64,000 nucleotides of DNA, from contig JAGIQG010000009.1 in assembly GCA_024679065.1 (NCBI GenBank), forward strand, positions 68,076,001 to 68,140,000, given 5' to 3'. The notes below the pieces were generated by a model. That model was not told the DNA's origin and ran no database searches. It saw only the letters and a program-made list of their open reading frames with translations. Source of the DNA: Sphyrna mokarran. Lineage: Eukaryota. Of this stretch, positions 6,996 through 59,327 are shown one piece after another (within the stretch, counting starts at the first letter, position 1; every line of letters begins with the position of its first letter). Made by a program: the position numbers and the translations under genes.

Positions 6996-7990
6996 GAAAC
7001 CTTTTTGCCTTGTAAATAGAATTGGAGTTTGAGAAGACTGCTACTCCCTATTCCTTGGCCTAGTGGTCCAGGCTACTTAGATATAACAAACTGACGATTA
7101 GATATGCCACTTGGAATTCAGATGTTTTGGAGATAATCAATGTTCAACACAAATTATCACTAAAGTTAGAACTAGCTGACTAAGGCAATCGGTGACTACA
7201 AAGGTCAGCTTACCACTAATGATTTTGTGCAAACTGAGGTAGTTTCAACTGAGCAGATACTGGACTCGAACAGACGAATGTTATAGCTAGAAAACTCGAT
7301 TGATAGAATTCTGTCAAAGAAATGTGCCACATAGATAGAAACAATTCACACAATGATGTTAGAGCAAACTACTTACAAAATGAGGATGTTTTAATCAAAA
7401 AGGACTTTTAAAAAAAAAAGCATTTCGTTCCAAACTTTGCCCACAGGGTGGAACGTAATCAAACATGAAATCAATAAATACATTTAAAAACATTTCCCTA
7501 GGCAGGCATTTGAACTGCAATTTACTTAAAACGTTTTATATAAAAAACTTGAGGTAGTGCCTCTGATATCCCCTCAAGGCATTCCTAAGTATTCACTGCC
7601 GTATAAAAGCATTTGGAAACATAACCATGTTTTATAGTGTTATGGACATGAGAGGGTTTAATTTAAACAGCCTTGCCACCTATTCGTAAACAGGAAAGTG
7701 TTTTGATGTTAACGTGTTTTATAAGCAGTGGCGTATTTCCCAACACCTCAGTTTTGTCGTGATCCAATTTCTATTAATAAACCCTACAGCAAACCTGTGA
7801 TCAGATGAGCTCCAGGGTAAGGATGTAGAGGTGCCCCTGCCCCCCCTGGGGAAGGGTCCCCCTGCCCCCTCTGCAAAGGGGAAGAGGGATGTGGTGATTT
7901 CTCTTTCTCTCTCTTGGGATGCTCTCTGCAACAACGGCCTCCTCTCCTCCTGCTGTCTACACGGACTCCCCACCTGGCTCTCGGCCTTAC

Positions 7991-8130
7991 CTCCCACCGC
8001 CTCCGTCCCGGCCAAACCCCAGCAGAGGGGCGGGGGAAGCGACCGGACTGCCCCAGGCAGATAACCGCTGCTGCTCCCGCCGATCCTCCAACCTGGGCCT
8101 CGGCCTGCGGAAAGCGAGAGCGGCCTCGGC
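7991..8130 (-). other. VAMP4: VAMP4 non-coding exon 1 (5' end approximate)
   Basis: Strongest unique CpG-rich segment in the window; canonical donor GGAG|GTAAGG (GT at 7989-7990), 4.4 kb upstream of the VAMP4 ATG exon on the same strand. Confidence 0.75.
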
Positions 8131-8175
8131 TCGCGAGAACTGGGCAGGGCCCGCCCCGTCTCCATGGCAACTGGG
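8125..8175. promoter_or_regulatory. CpG-island promoter with BANP/ZBTB33-type palindrome, GC box and RFX X-box
   Basis: CTCGCGAGA at 8130-8138, GGGCCCGCCCC at 8147-8157 and GTCTCCATGGCAAC at 8158-8171, clustered just upstream of exon 1. Confidence 0.75.
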
Positions 8176-9370
8176 GGAGGGGGGAGGGGAGGAGGAGATG
8201 GTGAGGGGGGGAGGTGACGGGGACAGGAGGGTAAGGGAAAGAGATGATGGAGGGTAATGGGGAGAAAATGGCGGGGGGGGGAGGGAAGGTGATGGGGGTT
8301 GATGAAGTGGAAGTGATGGGCAGAGGGATGATAATGGGAGGATGTGGTAGATGATGGGGTGGAGTGATGGGAGGGGGAGGTGATGGGAGGGAAGGTAGAG
8401 GGACGTGATGGGAGGGAGTGGAGAAGGGGTGGGGTGATTGCGAAGGAGGTGAGGGAAGGTAATGGAAGTGGTGAGGTGATAGAAGAGAGGTGTTGGGAGG
8501 GGTAGAGAGAGATGATGGGAGCGTGGAAGGGTGGGTGATGAAAGGGCAAGGTGAGGGGAGGGAGTTAATGGGAAGATGGTGAAGAGGTGATGGGGAAGTG
8601 GAGAAGGATGACTAGAGAAGGAGGGAGGAAGGAGGCAGGGAGGGGAGAGGGTGTAATGAGGGAGAGAGTGGGGGGAAGTGGGAGGAGATGATGAGTGTGA
8701 GGGGATGATAATGAATGGGAGGGATGATGGGGAGTGAGAACGTGTAATCATGGGGAATCAGATTGGTGGAGAGGAATGGTGTGGAATGAGGGAAGGGCAA
8801 TGGGGATATGCAGAAGAAGTGAAAGGAGGCACGAAGAGCAGAATGGGGATTTGGGAGAGGATATGGAAAGGGATTGGTGAGATGAGGATGGGGAGGGCAA
8901 TCAAGAGAAGAGGGAAATACGAATGGGTGGGAGAGGACAGTGGGGTCGGGCTAGAGGAATGGGGCCAAAGAATGTGGTATGTGAATGGGGCAGTGGGGGA
9001 ACGTGGTTGCGGGAAAGAAGTTGGTACAAGGGGAGCAGGCACTAGGGAGAAGGTTGGAAGGGAGATGGTGGCTGTTGGGAGCGGGAGGAATGTGTGGAGA
9101 GGTAGGGATAATGGATTGTGATGAGAACTGGGGAAAGGCATGAAGTATGAAGAGGGAAACTGGGACAGAGAGAAATGGATAGAGAAGGAAAATGGGGAAT
9201 GATGGAGGGCATTGGGAAGGGGAGACGGGAATGGCGAGATGGGAGTGGACTTGATGAATGGAGAAGGAGAATGTGAAGAGAGAGTTAGGGAAAGAGAGAT
9301 GGAAAGGAGAATGGGGGGAGGAGAGAAGCAGACTGCAGAGAGATGGTAATGTGGAGGTGAGGATGGCAAA
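8172..9370. repeat. 1.2-kb low-complexity G/A-rich tract
   Basis: Plus strand is strongly G/A-rich and C-poor with recurring GGGA/GATGGG units; it generates the spurious P/S/H/L-rich ORFs. Confidence 0.9.
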
Positions 9371-9812
9371 TTTGAGATGGTAGTCCTCTGAATTGTAGGA
9401 TTATATGCAGTTATATGAAAAATAGATTATATGAAAAAGGGGAGAGAAAATAATGTAAAATGGCAACAAAAATAAAATAAGAATAATCAGCCCATATTAT
9501 TTATTTACTTGTTCAATAAATTGAGTTGTAATTTTTAATCACTGACTTTACTGGTATCATTCTGTCACTTTTTGGTGACAGGAAGGAATGTGTAGCAGCT
9601 TGGAATCATAGGAACACAGATGATACAGCACAGAGGAAATTTTGCTCATTATCCTAGTCACACTTATCTAGCCACCTGGGCCAGAGTAAACAGTCACAAT
9701 GGCTTGCCTGTGTGAATCCGAGAATAATAATGTAATTAAAGTGCTGAAATTTAGTAAGTGTCTTGGAACATGGGGATATGATTAGCTGAATAGCCTCTTG
9801 AAGCTGCTCCAC

Positions 9813-19135: not shown

Positions 19136-20061
19136 GTAGGAAGGTAGTGGTGTAATAAGATGGTGGGAAAATGAGGCTGAAAATAATTAAGAAGGAGACA
19201 GCCTTCTTTTTGTCCCTACAATTTAAATGTGAATACAATATTAGTGTTTCTGGAAAAGGTCAGTGAAATCAAGGCCATCAAAATGACGCACTGTTATTTG
19301 ACTCATGACTGGAATTAATTTTCCATTTTAATCGGTTTTCAGAGTCCGATGTGATTGTCTAAACACACAGGCAAAAGCCTTTCAGGCTAAGTATTGCAAA
19401 TGGGAAACATGTCAAGAATAGTTCTTATCATCATAAACCATGGCTGAAATCGCGGCACTCTGTGCAAGAACCATTACACTGATCAATGTCCGAAAGGCTT
19501 TGCACTCTAGTTACCTTACAAATCTTGTCGCAACTTTTGTTGTTTATGTTAGTCATGGAGGCTTTTCAGTGAGTACAAGGGAACAGTAAATGAACTTCTG
19601 ATGTTTTACACAGAATGCTAGTATATAAAACAGACAGTTGGCAGCTAAGTTGCTTAATTTCGATAAAATGCATTTGGACAGAAGAGCAGGAAAAATATCA
19701 TTATATTGTAGTCCTTTCCGAGCTTCCTTTTGCAGTGTTTCACCACTCCAGCTGCTTAAGTTTATATAACAGTATTTTGCAGTTTCATTCTAGAAGTTTC
19801 CTTTGTTGACATATTGAAGGATATTTTTCCTTTGTTTTTCTCCATTCCTTGCCTATTTTCTGCCGTCCCCTTCTTCCATTGTAAATGTAGCTGACTTGCC
19901 TGGCTACAATTGTACCTACTTAACATAGCTAGTAAATCATCTAAATTGGTTGCTCTTCTATTGCCTGTGCCCACTTGCCGCCATCACACCATTGTCTTAT
20001 CCCCCACCCACCCCCACTCCCAACCTTGCAAAAATGGTGGATGCCAAGTTTTTTAAGTTGA

Positions 20062-20352
20062 AATTTATTTATTAGTGTCACAAGTAGGCTTACATTAACA
20101 CTGCAATGCAATTACTGTGACAATCCCCTGGTCACCACTCTTCAGCACTTGAGGGAGAATTTAACATAGTCAATGCATTTAACCAGCACATCCTTCGGAT
20201 TGTGAGACAAAACTAGAGCACTCAGAGGAGACCCACGCAGACATGGAGAGAATGTGCAAATTCCACACTTTAAGCAATACAAACCAGGAAGCGAAACCAG
20301 GTCCCTAGTGCTGTGAGAAGACAGTACTAATCGCTGTGCCACTGTGCTGCCA
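20062..20352 (-). mobile_element. tRNA-derived V-domain SINE (AATAAATAAA-type tail)
   Basis: Minus-strand head GGCAGCACAGTGGCACAGCGATTAGTACTG, V core TTTGCACATTCTCTCCATGTCTGCGTGGG, tail GTAAGCCTACTTGTGACACTAATAAATAAA. Confidence 0.85.
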
Positions 20353-22360
20353 AGCCACTTCTAGAATTGGGGGTTTGACACCATTTTATCTGAGTGCTGT
20401 CCCTCCAGCTTTGCAAAAGCTGAGGCCAATCTCACTAGATAGATTTTATTTTCTTTTTAAAGGTTGATGCCATCACAAGAGTGACAATATTGGAAGAATT
20501 ACTCAACCCAGTGGCATTGAAGAAATGAGTTGCTACATATAGTTGAAATGATGCAATACTAGAAACGTCATTTTAATGACTATAGTGTAGAACTCACAGA
20601 TACCAATCAATATGAATAGCTGAGTACTCAATTTCTGTTCCTGTGAGTTTAAGGAAGATGTTTAACCCAGTTAAAATACAATAATTCACATTTGTGTGAA
20701 AAAAACTGTAATGCGCTAATTTTTCATGTGCTAATATCACTGCAGATAATTTCTCAGTTTATAAATATGCTTGTATTAATTCTGCTACCTTATCTTGCCC
20801 ATCTTCATAACTATCAAAGCCAATTCCCCAATATACCTTTCAAAACTCAAAAATGCCTCAATGTCAATGGGAAGATGGGAAGACAGGAGTAAAGAAAACT
20901 GTTTATGGGAATTAGACATTCTGGAAAGTTAGAATAAAATTAGAATGAGCAAGAAACCAAGCTGGAAATGTTTGATGTCACAGACAAAGGAGACTTCTAT
21001 TGTAAAATTGTAATAATCAGTGTAAATCTGCTGTCCATGCAATTATAAATCTGGTTTTTCTTTAAAAGTGTGGCAAAGGAGCATGATGGGGATAAAGTGA
21101 TGGAGAGGGAATTGAAGCAGTGCATAGTAAAGCCTTTTACAGTTGTTTTGGTACTGAAAATAAATAAAGCAGGAATCAGTGAAAATATTTCAATTAACAA
21201 TTGAACAGATAGAGAGGGTGCTGATACAGGGATTGTCACCAACCTGGGAGAAGGCTTCTAGTGCAGTCCCGCAAAGATCTGTTTTGGGATTCATTTCATT
21301 TAATCACAGGATCACAGAATTCTTAGGTGTGGAAGGAAGCCATTTGGTCCATCATGTCTGTGCCAACTCTCCAAACGAGCACCGAATCTAATGCCATGCC
21401 CCTGTCTTATCCTTCCACCTCTGTACATTGTTTCTATTCAAGTTATTGCTAATGCACTCAAGTGCCTTGATTGAACCTGCCTCCGCCACATTTCCAGGCA
21501 GTGCATTCTAGATAAGAACCACTCTTTTTGTGTAAACACTTTTTCTTACATCATAGTTGTTTCTTTTGTAAATCACTTTAAATCTGTGTCCTCTTGTTCT
21601 CAATCCTATTTTGTCCAGTCCCCTCATGATTTTTAACATCTCTATCAAATTTCCTCTTATTTTTCTTGTCTTCAAGGAGAACAGTCCCAACTGACCCGTC
21701 TATCCTTATAATTGGAGTTACTCATCTATGGATCAATTCTTGTGAACTTTTCCTTCACTCTGTCCAATACATTCACATCCTTCATACAGTTTGGTGCCCA
21801 GAACTATACACAATATTCCAGTTAATGTTTAACTAGCATCTTGGAGAAGTTTAACATAATTTCCTTATGCTTGTACTCTAAGCCCCTATTAATAAAGCCT
21901 CGAATATTGTATGCTTTATTAACTGCTCTCTCCACCTGTCTTGCCTACTTCAATAATCTCTGCACATATATACACAGATTCCTTCTTCCTGCACTCCTTA
22001 AGGATTTTTATCTCTTATTTGTATTGTCTTTCCATGTTTTCCTACCAAACTGTATCATCTTACACTTCTCTGTATTGAACTTCATCTGTCAACTATCTTC
22101 CCAATCCACCAATTTGTCTATGTCCTTTTGACATTCAACTCTGTCCTCTTTATGGTTTATAATGGTCCTAAGTTTTGTGTCGTCTGCAAACTTTGAGAGT
22201 GATCCCTACGGACCAAGATCTGGATCATTAATATATCAGTAAAAACAATCGTTCCAATACTGACCCCTGTGGAACACCTCTACAACCCTTCCACTAGCCC
22301 GAAAAATGTCCATTGACTCTGCTTCCTATTAATCAGCCAATTTTGCATCCACATTGCTAT

Positions 22361-25491: not shown

Positions 25492-27050
25492 CTGTTGTTG
25501 TTCGTCCATCGTCACTGATGAGGATCTCGAAACCATTAGTCAATTTGAGACTGGTTGTAGCACGTCCGAAGATGACTGATCAGGCCAATTCGGGCACAGA
25601 ATGTCCCGGCACATATTGGACAGACTTGTGTTGACACTGTAGGTGTTGCGCTGGTGGCTCTGGACTTGCGCAACTTGCAGTTAAGTTGTGCTTCAGCAAT
25701 ACACCTTGCTTCGTGAGCTTGACAGCCTTTGTGGATGGGGCAGCGCCAGGTAGGGCAGTTTTGTGCCAGCATTTCCTAGGCGGTCGTGTCAATGTCAAGC
25801 GACTTCAGGGAGGCCTTGAGTGTGTCTTTGAAATGTTTCTTCTGCCCTCCACGTGAGCGTCTTCCAGCAGAGAGTTCCCCAAAAAGTAACTGCTTGGGTA
25901 TGTGTTCGTCTGACATTCAGATGACTTGACCTGCCAGCGGGTGTGCGCTCTCATCAGCGGTGTGTGGACTGATGATAGACTTGCTCTAGAGAGAACTTCA
26001 GTGTCTGGTACTTTGTTTCATCATCGGATGCGTAATATTCTGTGAAGACAAATCATGTGGAAATGATTGAGCTGTCTTGCATGCCTTTGGTACACAGTCC
26101 ATGTTTCACAGACATACAGGAGGGTAGTGAGTACCATGGTGCTGTAGACCTTCAGTTTTGTTGCTGGGCTGATTTCTTGTTCCCATACAGTGGAGTGCAG
26201 TCTACCGAAAGCAGAACTTGCCTTTGCTTTTCTGCAGTTAACTTCTGCATCAATAGTCACTGCTTGGGAGAGGGTGCTGCCGAGATAAGTGAACTGGTCT
26301 GCTGCTTGTAGTTTCTGCCCTTTGATTGTGATTATGGATTCTGTGTACGGTGCATGATGAGCAGGCTGGTGCATGGCTTCAGTCTTTTTAATGTTGATGG
26401 TGAGTCCAAAGTTGTCAAAGCCATGGAAAATTTGTCAATATTGACTTGCACCTCTGGCTCTGAGCCAGCATACACAACGCAGTCATCGGCAAAGAGGAAA
26501 TCTCTCAGAACAGCCTCCTTCACTTTGATAATAGCTTGAAGTCTCTTCAGGTTGAAGAGCTTCCCATCCACTCTGTACTTGAGGCTGATTCCAGCAACAC
26601 TGTACTGGAAGGTATCATTCAGCATGGCAGTAAACACCATGCTGAACAGTGTGAGTGTGAGCACACAGCCCTGATTGGTGCCATTAGTGACTGGGAATGC
26701 CTCAGAGGATTCTCCGCCATCCAGTACTCTGGCCATCATGCCATCATAGAACTGGCATACCATCTGAATGAACTTGAGGCGGGGGGGCAGCTGAACTTGA
26801 CATGATTCTCTACAGGCCTTGTTGGCTTACAGTGTCAAAGGCTTTCCCAAGGTCAACAAACGTTGTTTAGAGCTTGCGATTCTGCTCCTGACACTTTTTT
26901 CTGAAGTTGGTGCGCAGCAAAAATCATGTCAGTAGTCCCATGACCTTTGCAGAAGCCACACTGTGACTCTGGAAACAGACCCAGCTCCAGATGAGTGACC
27001 AGACAATTTAGCAGGACTGTTACATGCAACATAACACTCTCTCCCAATAT
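25492..27050 (-). mobile_element. RTE-clade (BovB-like) LINE, 5'-truncated
   Basis: PESQCGFCKGHGTTDMIFAA, VTNGTNQGCVL, FLFADDC, FTYLGSTLS and C-terminal zinc finger CPICAGTFCARIGLISHLRT; 3' end GATGGACG(AAC)n. Confidence 0.93.
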
Positions 27051-27204: not shown

Positions 27205-28740
27205 GTCATAGAGGCTTACAGCATGGAAACAGGCCCTTCGGCCCAACTTGGTCATGCCATCCTTTTTTTAACCACTGAGTTAGTCTCAGTTGTTTGCGTT
27301 TGGCCTAAATCCCTCTATACCCATCTTAATCATGTCATTATCTAAATGCTTCTTCAAAGACAAAATTGTACTTGCCTCTACTATTGCCTCTGGCAGCTTG
27401 TTCCAGATGCTCCCCACCCTCTGTGTGAAAAAATTGCCCCTCTGGACCCTTTTGTATTTCTCCCCTCTCACCTTAAACCTATGCCCTCTGGAGAATAGAG
27501 GGAAAAGATATTGACTATCTAGCTGATCTATGCCCCACATTAATTTATAGACCTCTATAAGATTACCTCTAAGCCTCCTACGTCCAGGGAAAAAAAGTCC
27601 CAGTCTGTCTAGCCTCTCCTTATAACAGAAACCATCAAGTCCCAGTAGCACCCTAGTAAATTTTTTCTGCACTATTTCTGATTTAATAATATGTTTTTTA
27701 TAAGAGGATGACCAGAACTGTGCACAGTATTCCAAGTGTTGGCTTACTAATGTTTTGTACAACTTTAACAAGATGTCACAATTCCTGTATTTAATGTTCT
27801 GACCAATGAAACATAGCATACCGAATGCCTTCTTCACCATCCTGTCCACCCGTGACTCCACTTTCAAGGAGGTATGAACGTGTGCTCCTAGATCTCTTTG
27901 TTCTATAACTCTTCCCAATGCTCATCCATTAACTGAATAAATCCTGCCCTGATTCAATCTACCAAAATGCATTAGCTCACATTTATCTAAATTAAACTCC
28001 AAGTGCCATTCATCGGCCCACTGGCCCAATTGATCAAGATCCCATTGCAATACTTGATAACCTTCTTCACTGTCCACTATGCCACCAGCCTTGATGTCGT
28101 CTGCAAATTTACTTCACCATGCTGCCTTTTTTCTCATCCAAATCATTAATATAAATGAGAAGTAACAATGGACGAAACACTGATCTTTGAGACAACCTCT
28201 GGTCACAGGCCTTCAGTTTGAAAAACAACCCTTGACAACTACCCTCTATTTTCTGTCATCAAGACAACTTTGTACCCATTTGGCTACCTCACTCTGGATC
28301 CCGTGAGATTTAACCTCATGCAACAACCTACCATGCGGTACTTTGTCAAAGGTCTTGCTAAAGTCCATGTAGATAACATCACTGTCCTCATCTATCTTCT
28401 TCGTTACCCCTCCAAAAATCTCAATCAAATTTGTGAGGCATGATTTTTCACTCACAAAGCATGCTGACTATCCCTAATCTGTCCTTACCTCTCTTAATGC
28501 CTGCAGATCCTCTGCCTCAGAATACCTTCTAACAACTTACCCAATACAGAAATTTTAATAACTTAACCACTCAGTTGCCTGTAGTTCCCAGGCTTTTCCC
28601 TGCAGCTATTCTTAAACAAAGGCACATCTGTCACTTTCCAATCTTCAGGCACCTCACCTGTGGCTGTCGATGGTAAATATATCTGCCAGGGAACCCACAA
28701 TTTCCTCCCTAGCCTTCTACAGCATCCTGGATACACTTCA
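27205..28740 (-). mobile_element. CR1 LINE 3' part (5' part continues at 32123-32720)
   Basis: 210-aa ORF with CR1 C-terminal motifs. The host sequence ...GATACACTTCA resumes as ACTTCATCAGGTCCTGGGG after the younger insertion. Confidence 0.9.
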
Positions 28741-31700
28741 AAGAACAAAGAACAAAGAACAACACAGCACGGGAAACAGGCCCTTCGGCCCAACGAGCCC
28801 GCGCCGCCATCCTAACGTCTTAATGACATATAGAGACCAATATAGGGACAATTTGTTACCCAATCAGCCTAAGAGCACATTTTTGGGATGTGGGAGGAAA
28901 CCGGAGCACCCGGAGAAAACCCACGCAACCACGGGGAGAACGCGCAAACTCCCGCAGACACAGGCCCAAATCCATGTGTCTGCACAGCAACAGCGATAGT
29001 CTCTGAGCTGTCATGTTGCCCATCTGATGGTCCAGTTTAAGCATACACTAACGACATGAAGCACTAGGCCACTCCTGAAGTAACATCCAAGAGCAGCCCT
29101 CGCACGACCTGCCGAATGCATGCGCCTTGTTGGTCAACAAGGTGGACTGAATAGCCTGTGGAAACAAATAAAGTATTTAAACAGTCCTCCTATATCCCTC
29201 TATCTGCAGACTGCTCATGTGGCTGTCCAAGAGACCCTTAAACAACCCTAGCGTGCCTGTTCCCACCACCCCACTCGGTAGTGCATTCCACACCCTCACT
29301 ACCCTTTGTGTGGAAAAAATGCCCTCTAATATTAGTCTTATACATAGCCCCCCTCACCCTAAGGCTGTGACCCCTCGTTCTATCCGATTCTAATGGTGGA
29401 AAAAGCTTACCACCATTTACTCTATCTATACCCCTCATAATCTTATATACCTCTAAAAGATCCCCTCTCAGCCGACGTCTTTCAAGGGAAAACAACCCAG
29501 TGTTTTCAATCTTTCCTCATAAGACAGCCCTTCCATACCAGGCAGCATCTTGGTAAATCTCCTCTGCACTCTCTCCAGGGCCTCTACATCCTTCCTGTAG
29601 TACGGCGACCAGAACTGGACGCAGTACTCCAGATGAGGCCTAACCAACATTCTATACACCTGCAACATCAGACTCCTACTCTTGTATTCTATACCCCTTC
29701 CTATGAAGGCTAACATACCATACGCTTTATTTATCACTTTTTCCACCTGTACTGACACCTTCAGAGACTTGTGAACCTGCACCCCCAGGTCTCTCTGCGT
29801 CTCTATACTCCGGATAGTTTTACCTTTTATCCTATAATCCCCTCTACATTATTCCGGCCAAAATGCATCACCTTGCATTTATCCGGATTAAATTCCATTT
29901 GCCATCTATCTGCCCAGTCTACCAGCCTATCTATGTCCTGTTGTATTGCCTGGCACTGCTCCTCAGTCCCCGCCAATCCAAGTATGTTAGTGTCATCAGC
30001 AAATTTGCTGATCACACCACCTACCCCCTCTTCCAAGTCATTTATATAAATCACAAATAGAAGCGGTCCTAGTACTGAGCCCTGTGGCACACCACTAGTG
30101 ACTGACCTCCAGTTGGAAAAAGAGCCTTCCCCTAATACCCGCTGTCTCCTCCTCCCAAGCCAGTTCTCAACCCATCTACATACCTGGCCCTGTATCCCAT
30201 GCGCCTTCACCTTTTTTATCAGCCTACCATGGGGAACCTTGTCAAACGCTTTACTGAAATCCAAGTAGACGACATCAACGGCTTGTCCTTCATCAACCGT
30301 TTTTGTCACCTCTTCAAAAAAATCCACTAGATTCGTAAGGCACGACCTCCCCTTAACGAAGCCATGCTGCGTATCCCTGATCAGATCGCAGCGCTCCAGA
30401 TGCTCATACATCCTGTCCCTAAGGATCCTCTCCATTAGCTTACCTATAACTGAAGTCAAGCTCACCGGCCTATAGTTCCCTGGATGATCCCTCTGACCTT
30501 TTTTAAACAACGGTACTACATTTGCTATCCTCCAGTCCTCTGGGACCTCACCTGTGTCCAAAGAAGAGACAAAGATTTGCGTCAGAGGCCCAGCAATGTC
30601 ATCTCTCACCTCCCTTAGCAGCCTGGGATAAATACCATCAGGCCCCGGGGCTTTATAAGTCTTTATGCTACCTAAAAGCCCCAACACTTCGTCCCTCGTA
30701 ATGATTATTTCCTTTAACGGGTCCTCAAAATCCTCAAAGCCGGCATCAGACATCAGGACCCTCTCCTTTGTGAATACCGACGCAAAGTATTCATTCAGGA
30801 TCTCCCCCATTCCCTCAGGGTCTAAGCATAGTTCCCCTCCTCTGTCCCTGAGAGGTCCAATCTTCCCTCTAACCATCCTTTTGCTCCTTACATAGGAGTA
30901 AAATGCCCTAGGATTTTCCTTAATCCTACCTGCCAAAGCCATTTCGTGGCCCCTTTTTGCCTTTCTGACCCCCCTTTTAATATCCCGTCTACACTCTCTA
31001 TATTTTTCCAGCGCTGCCTCTGTCCCCAGTTGCCTGGATCTAACGTACGCCTCCCGCTTCTTCCTGCCCAAGTCCTCAACATCCCTAGTAACCCACGGTT
31101 CTCTAATCCTACCTTTCCCATCCTTCCTCCTTACCGGCACGTGTCTTTCCTGCAAAAATTTTAGTTTTCCCTTGAAAGACTCCCACATGTGCAGCGTCGA
31201 CCTACCCTCGAACAGCTTATCCCAGTCGGTATCCCTAAGATCCTGCCTAATCTGGCTATATCTAGCCTTCCCCCAGTTTAACACCCTCCCCTTAGGGCAG
31301 GCTTCATCTTTTTCCATTAATACCCTAAAGCAGACAGAGTTGTGGTCACTATTAGACACATGCTCTCCTACTACAACATCAACCACCTGCCCTGGCTCAT
31401 TCCCCAGAGCCAGATCCAGTATAGCCCCCTCTCTAGTCAGGCTATCCACATACTGCTCCAAGGACCCTTCTAAAACACAGTGTACAAATTCCTCCCCGTC
31501 CGCACCTTCCACTCTCGGCACCTTCCAATCTACCCCAGGGAAATTGAAATATCCCATTACAACTACCCTATTCTTCCTACACTTATCTAAAACTTCCTTA
31601 CATATCCCTTCTTCCACGGCCCGCGGACTGTTGGGCAGTCTGTAGTACACACCCAACATAGTAACCTCTCCCTTCCTATTCCTCAACTCCACCAATAGCG

Positions 31701-32122
31701 ACTCAATTCCTAACTCAGCCATACCACCCTCCTTCTGCACTGCTATGATGTGATCCTTAACTAATAACGCCACCCCCCCCTCCTCTCCTCAAACCACCTC
31801 TATCATGCCTAAAACACTTATACCCCGGAATATTCAATTGCCAGTCCTGCCCTTCCTTTAGCCACGTCTCAGTCACCGCCACCATTCTAACTTCCTCTCG
31901 AACATTATTGCCTTCAGTTCATCTGTTTTGCCAGTCACACTCCTCGCATTAAAACACATGCACTGAAGGCCCTCAGGCACACTCTGATCTTCCCTCCTAC
32001 TCTCCAGAGTTACCCTGTCACCAATCTCTCTCCCACTCCCATTCCCTCTACCTCCCCACCCTACCTCCATATTAGTTTAAACCCTGCCGAAAAACTCCAG
32101 CTAACCTCCCAGCTAAAATATG
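28741..32122 (-). mobile_element. Young CR1 LINE with near-complete ORF2 and extended 3' UTR, flanked by 6-bp TSD ACTTCA
   Basis: ACTTCA at 28735-28740 and 32123-32128; (GAACAAA)n tail on plus; ORF2 runs from CFNARSV (~31960) to TAA at 29177-29179 with a few frameshifts. Confidence 0.93.
29827..31773 (-). CDS. CR1 ORF2 (APE endonuclease C-terminal half plus reverse transcriptase), 648-aa open stretch, frameshifted at both ends
   Basis: GVYYRLPN, MGYFNFP, LDLALGNE, SDHN, KAPGPDG, NYRPVSLTS, YLDFSKAFDKV, GVPQGSVLGP, KFADD. Confidence 0.92.
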   Translation of the reverse strand: MALLVKDHIIAVQKEGGMAELGIESLLVELRNRKGEVTMLGVYYRLPNSPRAVEEGICKEVLDKCRKNRVVVMGYFNFPGVDWKVPRVEGADGEEFVHCVLEGSLEQYVDSLTREGAILDLALGNEPGQVVDVVVGEHVSNSDHNSVCFRVLMEKDEACPKGRVLNWGKARYSQIRQDLRDTDWDKLFEGRSTLHMWESFKGKLKFLQERHVPVRRKDGKGRIREPWVTRDVEDLGRKKREAYVRSRQLGTEAALEKYRECRRDIKRGVRKAKRGHEMALAGRIKENPRAFYSYVRSKRMVRGKIGPLRDRGGELCLDPEGMGEILNEYFASVFTKERVLMSDAGFEDFEDPLKEIIITRDEVLGLLGSIKTYKAPGPDGIYPRLLREVRDDIAGPLTQIFVSSLDTGEVPEDWRIANVVPLFKKGQRDHPGNYRPVSLTSVIGKLMERILRDRMYEHLERCDLIRDTQHGFVKGRSCLTNLVDFFEEVTKTVDEGQAVDVVYLDFSKAFDKVPHGRLIKKVKAHGIQGQVCRWVENWLGRRRQRVLGEGSFSNWRSVTSGVPQGSVLGPLLFVIYINDLEEGVGGVISKFADDTNILGLAGTEEQCQAIQQDIDRLVDWADRWQMEFNPDKCKVMHFGRNNVEGIIG

Positions 32123-32720
32123 ACTTCATCAGGTCCTGGGGATTTATTTATTTTGATGCACTTTAAGACTTCCACCATCTTCTTCTCTGCAATATGTACA
32201 CTCCTCATGACATAACTATTTATTTCCCCAAGTTCCCTAACATCTATGCCTTTCTCAACAGTAAATACTGATGAAAATTATTCATTCAGGATCTCACCCA
32301 TCTCTTGTGGACCTGCACATAGATGACCTCGTTGATCCTTAAGAGGCCCAGTCTCTCCCCAGTTACTCTTTAGCCCTTTATGCATTGTAGAAGCCCTTTA
32401 GATTGTCCCTTGTCTTATTTGCCAAAGCAATCTCGTTTCCCTTTTTGCCCTCCTTATTTCTCTCTTAACTTTACACCTATATCCTCTATGTGCCTCAAGA
32501 GATCCACTTAATCCCAGCTGCCTATAAATGTCATGTGTCTCTTCTTCTGTTTGACCAGGGCCTCAATATCCCAAGTCATCCAGGTTTCCTTCCTTCTACC
32601 AGCCTTGCCCATCACTCTAACAGGAATGTGCTTCCCCTGAACCCTGGTTAACATACTTTTGAAAGCCTCCCACTTACTGTTGCCTGCCAACAGACTCCCC
32701 CAAAGGACTTTTGATCCCAT
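32123..32720 (-). mobile_element. CR1 host element, 5' continuation of 27205-28740
   Basis: KWEAFKSMLTRVQGKHIPVR..W..WDIEALVK linker-region motifs. Confidence 0.85.
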
Positions 32721-36727: not shown

Positions 36728-37040
36728 TGGGATGGCGCAGTGACATAATGCTTAACAAGGCTGCCTCACAGCACCAGGGATCCAGGTTCAATTTTCAACT
36801 TGGTTCACTGTCTGTGTGGAGTTCGCACATTCTCCTCATGTCTGGATGGGCTTCCTCTGGATGCTCTGGTTTCCTCCCACAGTCCAAAGATGCACTGTTT
36901 AGGTGCATTGGCTATGCTAAATTCTCCCTCTGTACATCCAAACAGGCACTAGAGTGTGGCAACTAGGGAATTTTCACAATAACTTCATTGTAGTGTTAAT
37001 GTAAACTGACTTGTGACTAATAAGTAATCTTTAAACTTTG
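36728..37040 (+). mobile_element. tRNA-derived V-domain SINE
   Basis: Head GGGATGGCGCAGTG..GCTGCCTCACAGCACCAGGGATCCAGGTTCAAT, V core, TGTTAATGTAA..CTTGTGACTAATAA tail. Confidence 0.85.
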
Positions 37041-57134: not shown

Positions 57135-58469
57135 CTACACGATGGAAAAGATTGAGATGTAGATTAAAAAAAAAATCAATCATTTTCAATCCATACCATT
57201 GAGAAATTTTCAGTGCACTTTATTGCCATCCAGAGCCTTGCATCCATCATCATTTCATTCACGGGTGTTGGCAGCTAGGCTAGCATTTATAGCCCACCCT
57301 TAATCATCCACCAGAAGGTGTTAGTGAGTCTTCTTGAACTGGTGTAGTCCGTGTGTAAGGGAGTGAGTTCCAGGATTCCAATGAAGGAACAGCAATGCAG
57401 TTGCAAGTGAGGATGGTGCTTGGCTCATAGGGAAACTGGTGTTTCCACGTATCTACTATACTGGTTCTTCTAGAGGTAGAGGTTACAGGTTTGGAAAGTG
57501 CTAGCTAAGGAGCCATGGTGAGTTGCTACAGTGCATCTTGTAGATGGTACATACTGTTGTGACTGTGTATTAGTGGCAGAGGGAGTGAATACTGAATGGG
57601 TGATGGTCTGCCTATCAAGCAGGGCTGCTTTGCCCTGGCTGATGTGGAGTTTCAGGAGTGTTGTTTGAGCTGCGCCCATCCAGACACCCAAACCATTGCC
57701 ACTATCTCATCAATTTATTCCTTTCTTGCCCCCATAGACGACATCTGCTAAACATTTATTTGTAAATCTGCTCCAAAGAAGAGAAGGGCATTGTTCGGTG
57801 AAGGGGCAAAAACAATAAATGATTCACAATTTTAAACTTGCCACTCACTTCCCATTTCCTCTCACCTGAAGTCAAAAATTCATCTCATCTATTAATTAGT
57901 TGTGAATATGCACATCTGAATTGGACCCTATCCATAGCGAAGACACACACGTGCACTCTTTCAGCTAATTTCACTTAATAGTCATCAGAAGCAAAAAAGC
58001 CTTCTGCTATCACCCTTCTCCTTCATAACGAAGAAATGCCAAGGAAAATTATAGTTTACCCTAATTTCCTAATGCAGCAAAGAATGTTCAGCAACACACT
58101 CCAGAAGCCAAGTCAGCCTATGTCATTTTGACTATCGTTCTATGAACCATATTTACCTAAGATCATCCTAACTGCACATCCTATCCGCTTTCACTCTTTG
58201 GATAGTTTCACAACAAGAGGGTTAACACTAGAAATGGATGTCAGGTAGGCTGGTGGAGGCAGGGCCTCAAATTATTCAACAGAAATAGCTTGTCACTTTG
58301 GAGACACTGTTGGGTTATTTTTGAATAAACGGCTGAATGGTCTTTGCCTAGACTTGCCTCAGGATGTCCACACAAACTAACGTGACCCACCATTCTTCAG
58401 CTCAATGAGCTGCAATGGTCAAGTAGTGAGGGACTTGGCCACAGCCCTTCAATCACCAGGAATAGACCA

Positions 58470-58720
58470 TATAGCTGTGGGCTGACTCAGTGCTAACCAC
58501 TGTGATTCCCATCTTGGGTCACTGTCTGAGCGGAGTTTGCACGTTCTCGTGTCTGCGGGTTTTCTCCCACAGAGTGAAAGACGTGCTAGTTAGGTGAATC
58601 GGCCATGCTAAATTCTCTCTCAGTGTACCCAAACAGACACTAAACACGTGGTGACTAGGGGATTTTCACAATAAGTTCATTGCAGTGTAGATGTAAGCCT
58701 ATTTGTGACTAATAACTTTT
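58470..58720 (+). mobile_element. V-domain SINE, partial
   Basis: TTGGGTCACTGTCTGAGCGGAGTTTGCACGTTCTC core and GTAAGCCTATTTGTGACTAATAA tail. Confidence 0.75.
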
Positions 58721-59327
58721 TTGATTTTTGAGCCCTTGAGCCTGTTTTAGCTATCAATTAAATCATTTCTGATCTGTATTCTACTCCCATTTACCCACAC
58801 TGTTCCCATTACTTAATACCCTTGCTTAACAAAAAATAAACCATCTCATTTTTGAAATTTTCAAGTTACCAAGACGCAGCAGTGTTTTGGAGGAGAGAAC
58901 TCCAGATGACAGATGGCATCTTAGAGAAGGGGACTGTTCAATTAATAAAATGATTAATTTTAAATCTGAGGCTGAAATATATGTTATCCACAGGTATTAA
59001 GGGATATAATGCAAAGGTGGGTATGTGGAGTTACATTACAGATTAGTACTGATCTCATTGAATAGTGGATAAGTTCAGGGGCAAAATATTTATTCATGTT
59101 CCTATGTTCTTCTTGTGTCCAGCTGCCCAGAAACACAAGAGGTTTACATTTATTTATATGCCTTTCACAAACTTGAGATTTTCTAAAGCAATTTACAGCT
59201 AATGACATCCTTTTGAAGTCTAGTCAATGTTGTAGGAAACCCAGCCAATTTGCACAGCTAAAAAGAAAAATTTTGCGCAATACAGGTATGTACAACATGG
59301 GAGAAAAATCCATAGTATTGTGAATAG

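Follow-up and report, generated by a model that had tools for sequence, protein, structure and literature searches.

In the genome of Sphyrna mokarran, SINE-derived sequence is a fixed component of the 3′ UTR in one clade of CR1 LINEs. This architecture is real and family-wide, and probably undescribed so far. We searched the genome with a 560-nt query covering the ORF2 end and UTR of a copy in the window, i.e., the stretch of 64,000 nucleotides analyzed here. All 40 scored matches, taken from 2,814 candidates, were 98–100% identical over nearly the whole query and shared the same layout from ORF2 end to tail. Copies of the family have unrelated flanks and staggered, independent 5′ truncation points; duplications of 6–7 bp were found at 11 of 34 junction pairs, compared to 103 of 1122 cross-paired controls, and none were found at 16 of the 34. 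A diagnostic motif, chosen to tell the core of these carrier LINEs from that of free SINEs, has 39,564 exact matches in the genome, a count of motif matches alone. At the first 30 motif loci by position, the B box was absent throughout (0/30), while the hairpin was found at 29, the SINE head at 28, and the ORF2 end at 22. In 664 kb that were not selected for the carrier family, except for the window itself, there were 104 core matches, of which 62 had a B box and 20 were of the LINE type, with 22 left unclassified. A metagenome scan for the hairpin-core motif gave no matches. Of 12 sequencing runs listed, none contained half of the sequence words (best 0.36), a result that bears on neither expression nor species range.

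The sequence-only reading of the window had supposed that a LINE lineage took up SINE sequence and spreads it, naming a one-off RT template-switch chimera as the alternative, and had proposed a count of copies with ORF2 end, UTR block, and core in this order. That order holds in 40/40 matches and, with the motif count, bears out uptake by a lineage; the many independent copies refute a chimera confined to the window locus, to which we give practically no credence. CR1s without the insert measured 11–49 nt from projected stop to stem motif in 79/80 copies and 98 nt in one, confirming the earlier observation that other CR1s run from stop to tail in less than 100 nt.

The window copy is a 5′-truncated member of subfamily A of the carrier clade, lying at 28741–32122 on the minus strand. 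It is flanked by a 6-bp TSD, TGAAGT on the minus strand (ACTTCA on the plus strand), with its 5′ copy at 32123–32128 and its 3′ copy at 28735–28740. Since the two flanks join into a single older CR1 ORF2 (…KSPGPDEVYP…), the TSD is genuine and, as had been read from the letters, one pair encloses the ORF2 body and everything 3′ of it. Longer family copies extend beyond 32122, showing that the copy was truncated at the 5′ TSD. It sits within an older CR1 of the same orientation (27526–28734 and 32129–32449, minus strand), and same-orientation nesting in or beside other CR1s was also observed at loci L031, L035, L202, and L255.

Only the last codons and stop of ORF1 remain in this copy (32072–32122, minus strand). 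In longer copies, ORF1 may have an SGNH/GDSL-like esterase fold, suggested by weak matches to Lipase_GDSL_2 and OSK (E ~1e-5) that both fall under the curated cut-offs; it is present in subfamilies A and C, and full-length copies have a 5′ UTR of ~360 nt preceding the esterase-like frame. ORF2 (29177–32070, minus strand) encodes an APE endonuclease and RT (RVT_1, 3e-36; Exo_endo_phos_2, 1.6e-6), interrupted here by nine indel columns, with a longest open stretch of 653 aa (31788–29830). Its stop at 29179–29177 is followed by a 436-nt UTR consisting, in order on the minus strand, of 155 nt, the SINE head starting at 29021, the core (28952–28889), the stem-loop (28808–28764), and a terminal 7-mer repeat, (TTCTTTG)n. 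With an APE endonuclease and RT in ORF2, a 3′ stem-loop and short tandem repeat, frequent 5′ truncation, and short TSDs, the element is a CR1 LINE by its testable features, its tree being taken only among this genome's own copies.

Two further observations concern the 5′ half of the family. A TATA-like box lies ~150–170 nt inside the 5′ UTR of subfamilies A and C (L152:1193–1200 and the subfamily C loci L232–L254), is followed by a conserved GC-rich stretch, and may indicate that a shorter transcript starts internally. Many copies are bipartite, retaining ORF1 or the 5′ end along with the 3′ end on either side of a large internal deletion whose junctions vary between copies (L142, L150, L155, L165, L166, L172, L174, L176, L179, and L189).

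We compared the UTR with a free SINE consensus built from 29 copies in this genome. The two align colinearly, in the order of head, a deletion that takes out the B box, core, and ~45 nt past the core, placing a SINE core behind the head and before the stem-loop and tail, as had been described. The eroded tRNA-like head (28984–29021, minus strand), in which the A box is degraded, also stands: over the initial 35 nt of the free SINE, five subfamily consensuses agree with its consensus at 22–24 positions, a score reached by 0–1 of 5000 shuffles. Replacing the deleted B-box region is a predicted hairpin (28954–28983, minus strand; z −4.5; 29/30 loci) that pairs into the start of the core. The central core itself (28889–28952, minus strand), homologous to the free SINE, differs at 1–3 of 65 positions between subfamilies, and the SINE-derived stretch after it (28844–28888, minus strand), recognized by the same alignment, differs at 3–6 of 45. 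We take the core to be a V domain and the SINE to be HE1, homology being tested against this genome's free SINE. A hypervariable spacer (28809–28843, minus strand) follows, measuring 35, 76, and 81 nt in subfamilies A, B, and C. It is not SINE-like in A, where 648/1000 shuffles scored as well, compared to 9/1000 in C and a marginal 41/1000 in B.

With the B box deleted and the subfamily A spacer not recognizably SINE-like, the UTR falls short of the entire SINE that had been proposed. A tRNA head with working A and B boxes is absent, only a remnant being present, and the insert always lies behind the LINE block or is cut by 5′ truncation rather than forming an independent unit with its own ends; because both the B box and independent ends are missing, the insert taken as a whole is no V-SINE. 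Compared to column-shuffled controls, the SINE block has a better fold (z −3.3), and its structure is weakly supported, since only one of 53 pairs shows a two-sided change. The genome is rich in free SINEs with a tRNA head, this core, and a related tail, a first look giving 10,737 candidates. Another type of free SINE, with the same head and core and a non-CR1-like 3′ tail ending in TAAAC-like repeats, was noted in the window at 36730–37040, 19950–20470, and 58300–58850.

Between the ORF2 stop and the head lie 155 nt, in agreement with the earlier estimate of ~150 nt, but most of this sequence, which had been called unique, is a conserved, structured block of 134 nt (29022–29155, minus strand; z −3.65). 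Its predicted fold comprises a closing stem, a small hairpin, and an imperfect hairpin of ~40 bp (29123–29041), with z-scores of −3 to −5 in three consensuses. The consensus fold of five subfamily consensuses scored −48.5, compared to −21.5 for column shuffles. Among its 47 pairs, 24 are invariant, 5 have changed on both sides and 12 on one side, and 14 fail to pair in some rows; these compensatory changes, seen in five related rows, are suggestive of a conserved hairpin. No Rfam family matched the block (best mir-3569, E 1.7, 17.4 bits against a cut-off of 50), and none of 120 profile hits in the DNA searched was a homologue outside the carriers.

The block is fronted by a candidate splice-acceptor-like motif, a pyrimidine tract plus CAG (29156–29172, minus strand). 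Scored as a splice acceptor, it ranks highest among 471 AG sites of the full-length subfamily A reference; a score of at least 8 is reached by ~0.2% of AGs in the genome. ACAG is kept in 101/111 full hits. The site, tract plus CAG|G, is kept in six variants even though the tract sequence turns over, and it forms the 5′ edge of conservation; the stretch from stop to acceptor differs between subfamilies in length and sequence. Subfamily D has the strongest acceptor-like tract, together with a branch-point-like motif (score 12.3; L012:3376–3492, L217:33–164, and L267).

A donor-like G|GTAAGT precedes ORF1 in subfamily A and is missing from C. The junction predicted from this 5′ donor to the UTR acceptor had 0 matches in the genome and 0/30 loci holding the 5′ exon were spliced; on these grounds, together with the loss of the donor in C, spliced excision of both ORFs was rejected. 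The genome also holds 107 matches with altered bases just upstream of the acceptor-like site, from which we draw no rate comparison as the control pattern (575 matches) is confounded by a subfamily variant. Mostly plain truncations or indels, these altered loci never joined a LINE donor in 30 examined, leading us to reject exon-trapping retrocopies that start at the acceptor. Likewise, the join of ORF1 to a point near the acceptor in L142 is no splice product, its junction being microhomology and not GT-AG.

The 3′ end of the carriers consists of a CR1-type stem-loop (28764–28808, minus strand; z −3.08), putatively the RT recognition site, which shows 0/45 differences among subfamilies A, B, and C, and the (TTCTTTG)n microsatellite (28741–28763, minus strand, with the 7-mer repeat reading at 28739–28762). 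At a diagnostic stem position, G was found in 77/81 carriers, 77/80 short-UTR CR1s, and 0/72 free SINEs. TGCTGT occurred in 66/81 carriers and 52/80 short-UTR CR1s, compared to CACTGT in 36/72 free SINEs, and the terminal repeat is a 7-mer of GTTCT type in carriers, compared to an 8-mer in the SINEs. These three characters place the carriers with ordinary CR1 tails and away from free SINEs. Over 42 nt, the tail agrees at 35/42 positions with a family of short-UTR CR1s that shares the 7-mer repeat, and at 32/42 with the SINE consensus; the 5′ arm of the tail (10/14) and the subfamily C spacer lean toward the SINE. Judged by these comparisons, the carrier tail appears at least as LINE-like as SINE-like, making the suggested use of the SINE's tail as the LINE's own 3′ end no more than a possibility. 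The CR1 family sharing the 7-mer repeat was considered as a sister of the carriers and was ruled out by the ORF2 tree. Subfamily B has a poly(A)-like run in place of the 7-mer repeat, with an identical stem-loop (L031:5115–5370, L101, and L108).

In an ORF2 DNA tree of copies from this genome, midpoint-rooted only, the carriers group in a single clade (100/100), set among five or more short-UTR lineages. Two rows labeled as carriers fell outside the clade in an initial tree and were dropped as composites on inspection, L202 being a truncated carrier inside another CR1 and L056 a free SINE behind a short CR1; the long-branch rows L227 and L022 were also left out before the final tree. At least five carrier subfamilies exist. 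The four subfamily groups measured average 1.6–2.7% divergence from their own consensus, which indicates that they were active at about the same time. The window copy differs from long family copies at 65 mismatches in 3377 columns (1.9%). It is therefore as young as had been claimed, while the capture is not: a single ORF2 clade with several young subfamilies points to an old event, predating ~0.5 substitutions per fourfold site. Between A and C, ORF2 differs at 42/116 fourfold-degenerate sites (about 0.49 corrected) and at 68/370 residues. The abundance and youth of short-UTR CR1 lineages without the module show that it is not required for CR1 mobility.

The SINE block changes far more slowly than synonymous sites and the adjacent spacer. 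Between A and C, it differs at 11/177 sites, compared to the 42/116 fourfold sites (Fisher p = 1.7e-10), with 27/133 differences in the upstream block, 0/45 in the tail, and 22/35 plus 46 gap columns in the spacer. In all three pairs of A, B, and C, this spacer is saturated and length-variable, although the conserved core precedes it and the invariant tail follows. The A–B comparison departs from this pattern in the upstream hairpin block, with 30/132 differences against 9/56 at fourfold sites, an excess that suggests either UTR/ORF exchange between subfamilies or acceleration. With such exchange possible, the UTR may be younger than ORF2 divergence implies.

We consider it somewhat more probable than the competing accounts taken together that the SINE block was captured once, by an ancestral CR1 master element, and that selection has retained it as an RNA element acting in cis to aid retrotransposition. 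The capture may have occurred by read-through that took in a downstream intron-end/exon together with a SINE, a route that would account for the acceptor-like motif, or by SINE insertion or template switching into the UTR, with about even odds between these inferred routes. Loss of the B box would have put an end to Pol III transcription of a competing parasite RNA from within the LINE, and the head would have been rebuilt into the predicted hairpin that pairs into the core. As the core changed far less than the surrounding sequence, it likely aids copying of the RNA; on the evidence of these rates it would be held by selection on the master RNA and act at the RNA level, in RNP assembly, stability, or export. 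Stringent TPRT from the 3′ end is established for CR1/L2-type LINEs. Copying of the carriers would be ordinary stringent TPRT beginning from the terminal stem-loop and repeat, and 5′-truncated copies would thus keep the module. A stronger version, which we advance tentatively and hold to be rather less than probable, is that this clade domesticated its own parasite, with the SINE promoter switched off, the head rebuilt into helices, and the V domain and acceptor-fronted hairpin raising retrotransposition.

The most serious competitor, although an unlikely one, treats the SINE block as a neutral passenger whose similarity across subfamilies stems from recent UTR exchange by template switching. 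The A–B excess in the hairpin block conflicts with the ORF2 tree in the way such exchange would produce, and the many internally deleted copies with varied junctions imply frequent RT jumping. However, the spacer between core and tail is saturated and length-variable in all three pairs and the stop-to-acceptor stretch differs as well, such that exchange must repeatedly have spared both flanks. We find it less plausible still that the module is a terminal exon whose acceptor is used, yielding a spliced structured RNA of hairpin and core, possibly a small-RNA precursor. The top rank and rarity of the acceptor score, the retention of the site at the edge of conservation despite tract turnover, and the compensatory change in the ~40-bp hairpin speak for this account; the missing donor in C, the want of spliced junctions or spliced 5′-exon loci, the 30 altered loci of which none joins a LINE donor, and the lack of an Rfam match oppose it.

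A last proposal reverses the direction of transfer. In an extension of Kojima's LINE-origin model, the core would have arisen in the carrier LINE's UTR and been taken by SINEs; LINE origins for SINE bodies have been proposed in the accessible part of PMC5786205. The LINE retains an eroded tRNA-like head in SINE register, and this remnant leaves the proposal strongly disfavored and, in our estimate, very improbable. In addition, the portion of PMC4824008 available places V-SINEs as far afield as cnidarians and bivalves, whereas only a single CR1 clade carries the insert. Capture of SINE sequence by the LINE thus remains the reading that we prefer.

Several known systems resemble the carriers in part. 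The HE1 V-SINE and HER1 CR1-type LINE are a known pair in sharks and rays, according to the accessible text of PMC3747384. The carriers likewise have a CR1-type ORF2 and 3′ stem-loop, alongside abundant free tRNA-headed SINEs with a related tail, but their own UTR holds the head remnant and core without a B box. In MER6/MER6A, a V-SINE was inserted in another mobile element and spread by it; as outlined in the available portion of PMC6887750, MER6 is a non-autonomous DNA MITE with no RNA stage and long inactive, whereas the carriers are protein-coding, recently active retroelements with a measurably constrained captured block. Ingi-3_AC has Ceph-SINE-like sequence for which SINE-to-LINE recombination was suggested; in the part of PMC5786205 that covers it, this is a 5′ UTR with an RTE-derived SINE part and no constraint analysis, in contrast to a 3′ UTR with head and core. 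Canonical vertebrate CR1s, as described in the accessible sections of PMC13343379, have an esterase ORF1 (putatively esterase-type in the carriers), and share with the carriers an APE-RT ORF2 and a microsatellite tail. The carriers differ in their composite 3′ UTR of 430–550 nt, where under 100 nt would be usual.

We found no description of the carrier architecture in the literature, although Repbase, Dfam, Ogiwara 2002, and supplements may hold one; it is absent from the accessible portions of PMC13343379, PMC1513397, PMC11481361, PMC5499810, and PMC4824008. The available text of PMC5804259 (2016) calls it a major enigma that SINE central domains have stayed conserved over hundreds of millions of years, and argues against a role in SINE-LINE tail exchange on the ground that such domains had not been found in LINE sequences. 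A recently active LINE with such a core under constraint contradicts that premise, as far as the available text states it. If the stronger, domestication version is right, no highly conserved SINE domain would have been seen at work in a LINE before, and the carriers would show directly that such domains benefit retroposon RNA and not the host. A protein-coding LINE of ~40,000 or more copies that was active recently also offers a self-contained substrate for retrotransposition assays with and without the domain, and carrier 3′ ends would be mis-annotated as SINEs.

Elsewhere in the window, ARAGORN detected no tRNA. A long purine-rich low-complexity tract at 7700–9430 gives rise to spurious proline-rich ORFs on the minus strand. 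An RT fragment unlike CR1 (…DFLFADD…), presumably of RTE type, lies at 26332–26826 on the minus strand.
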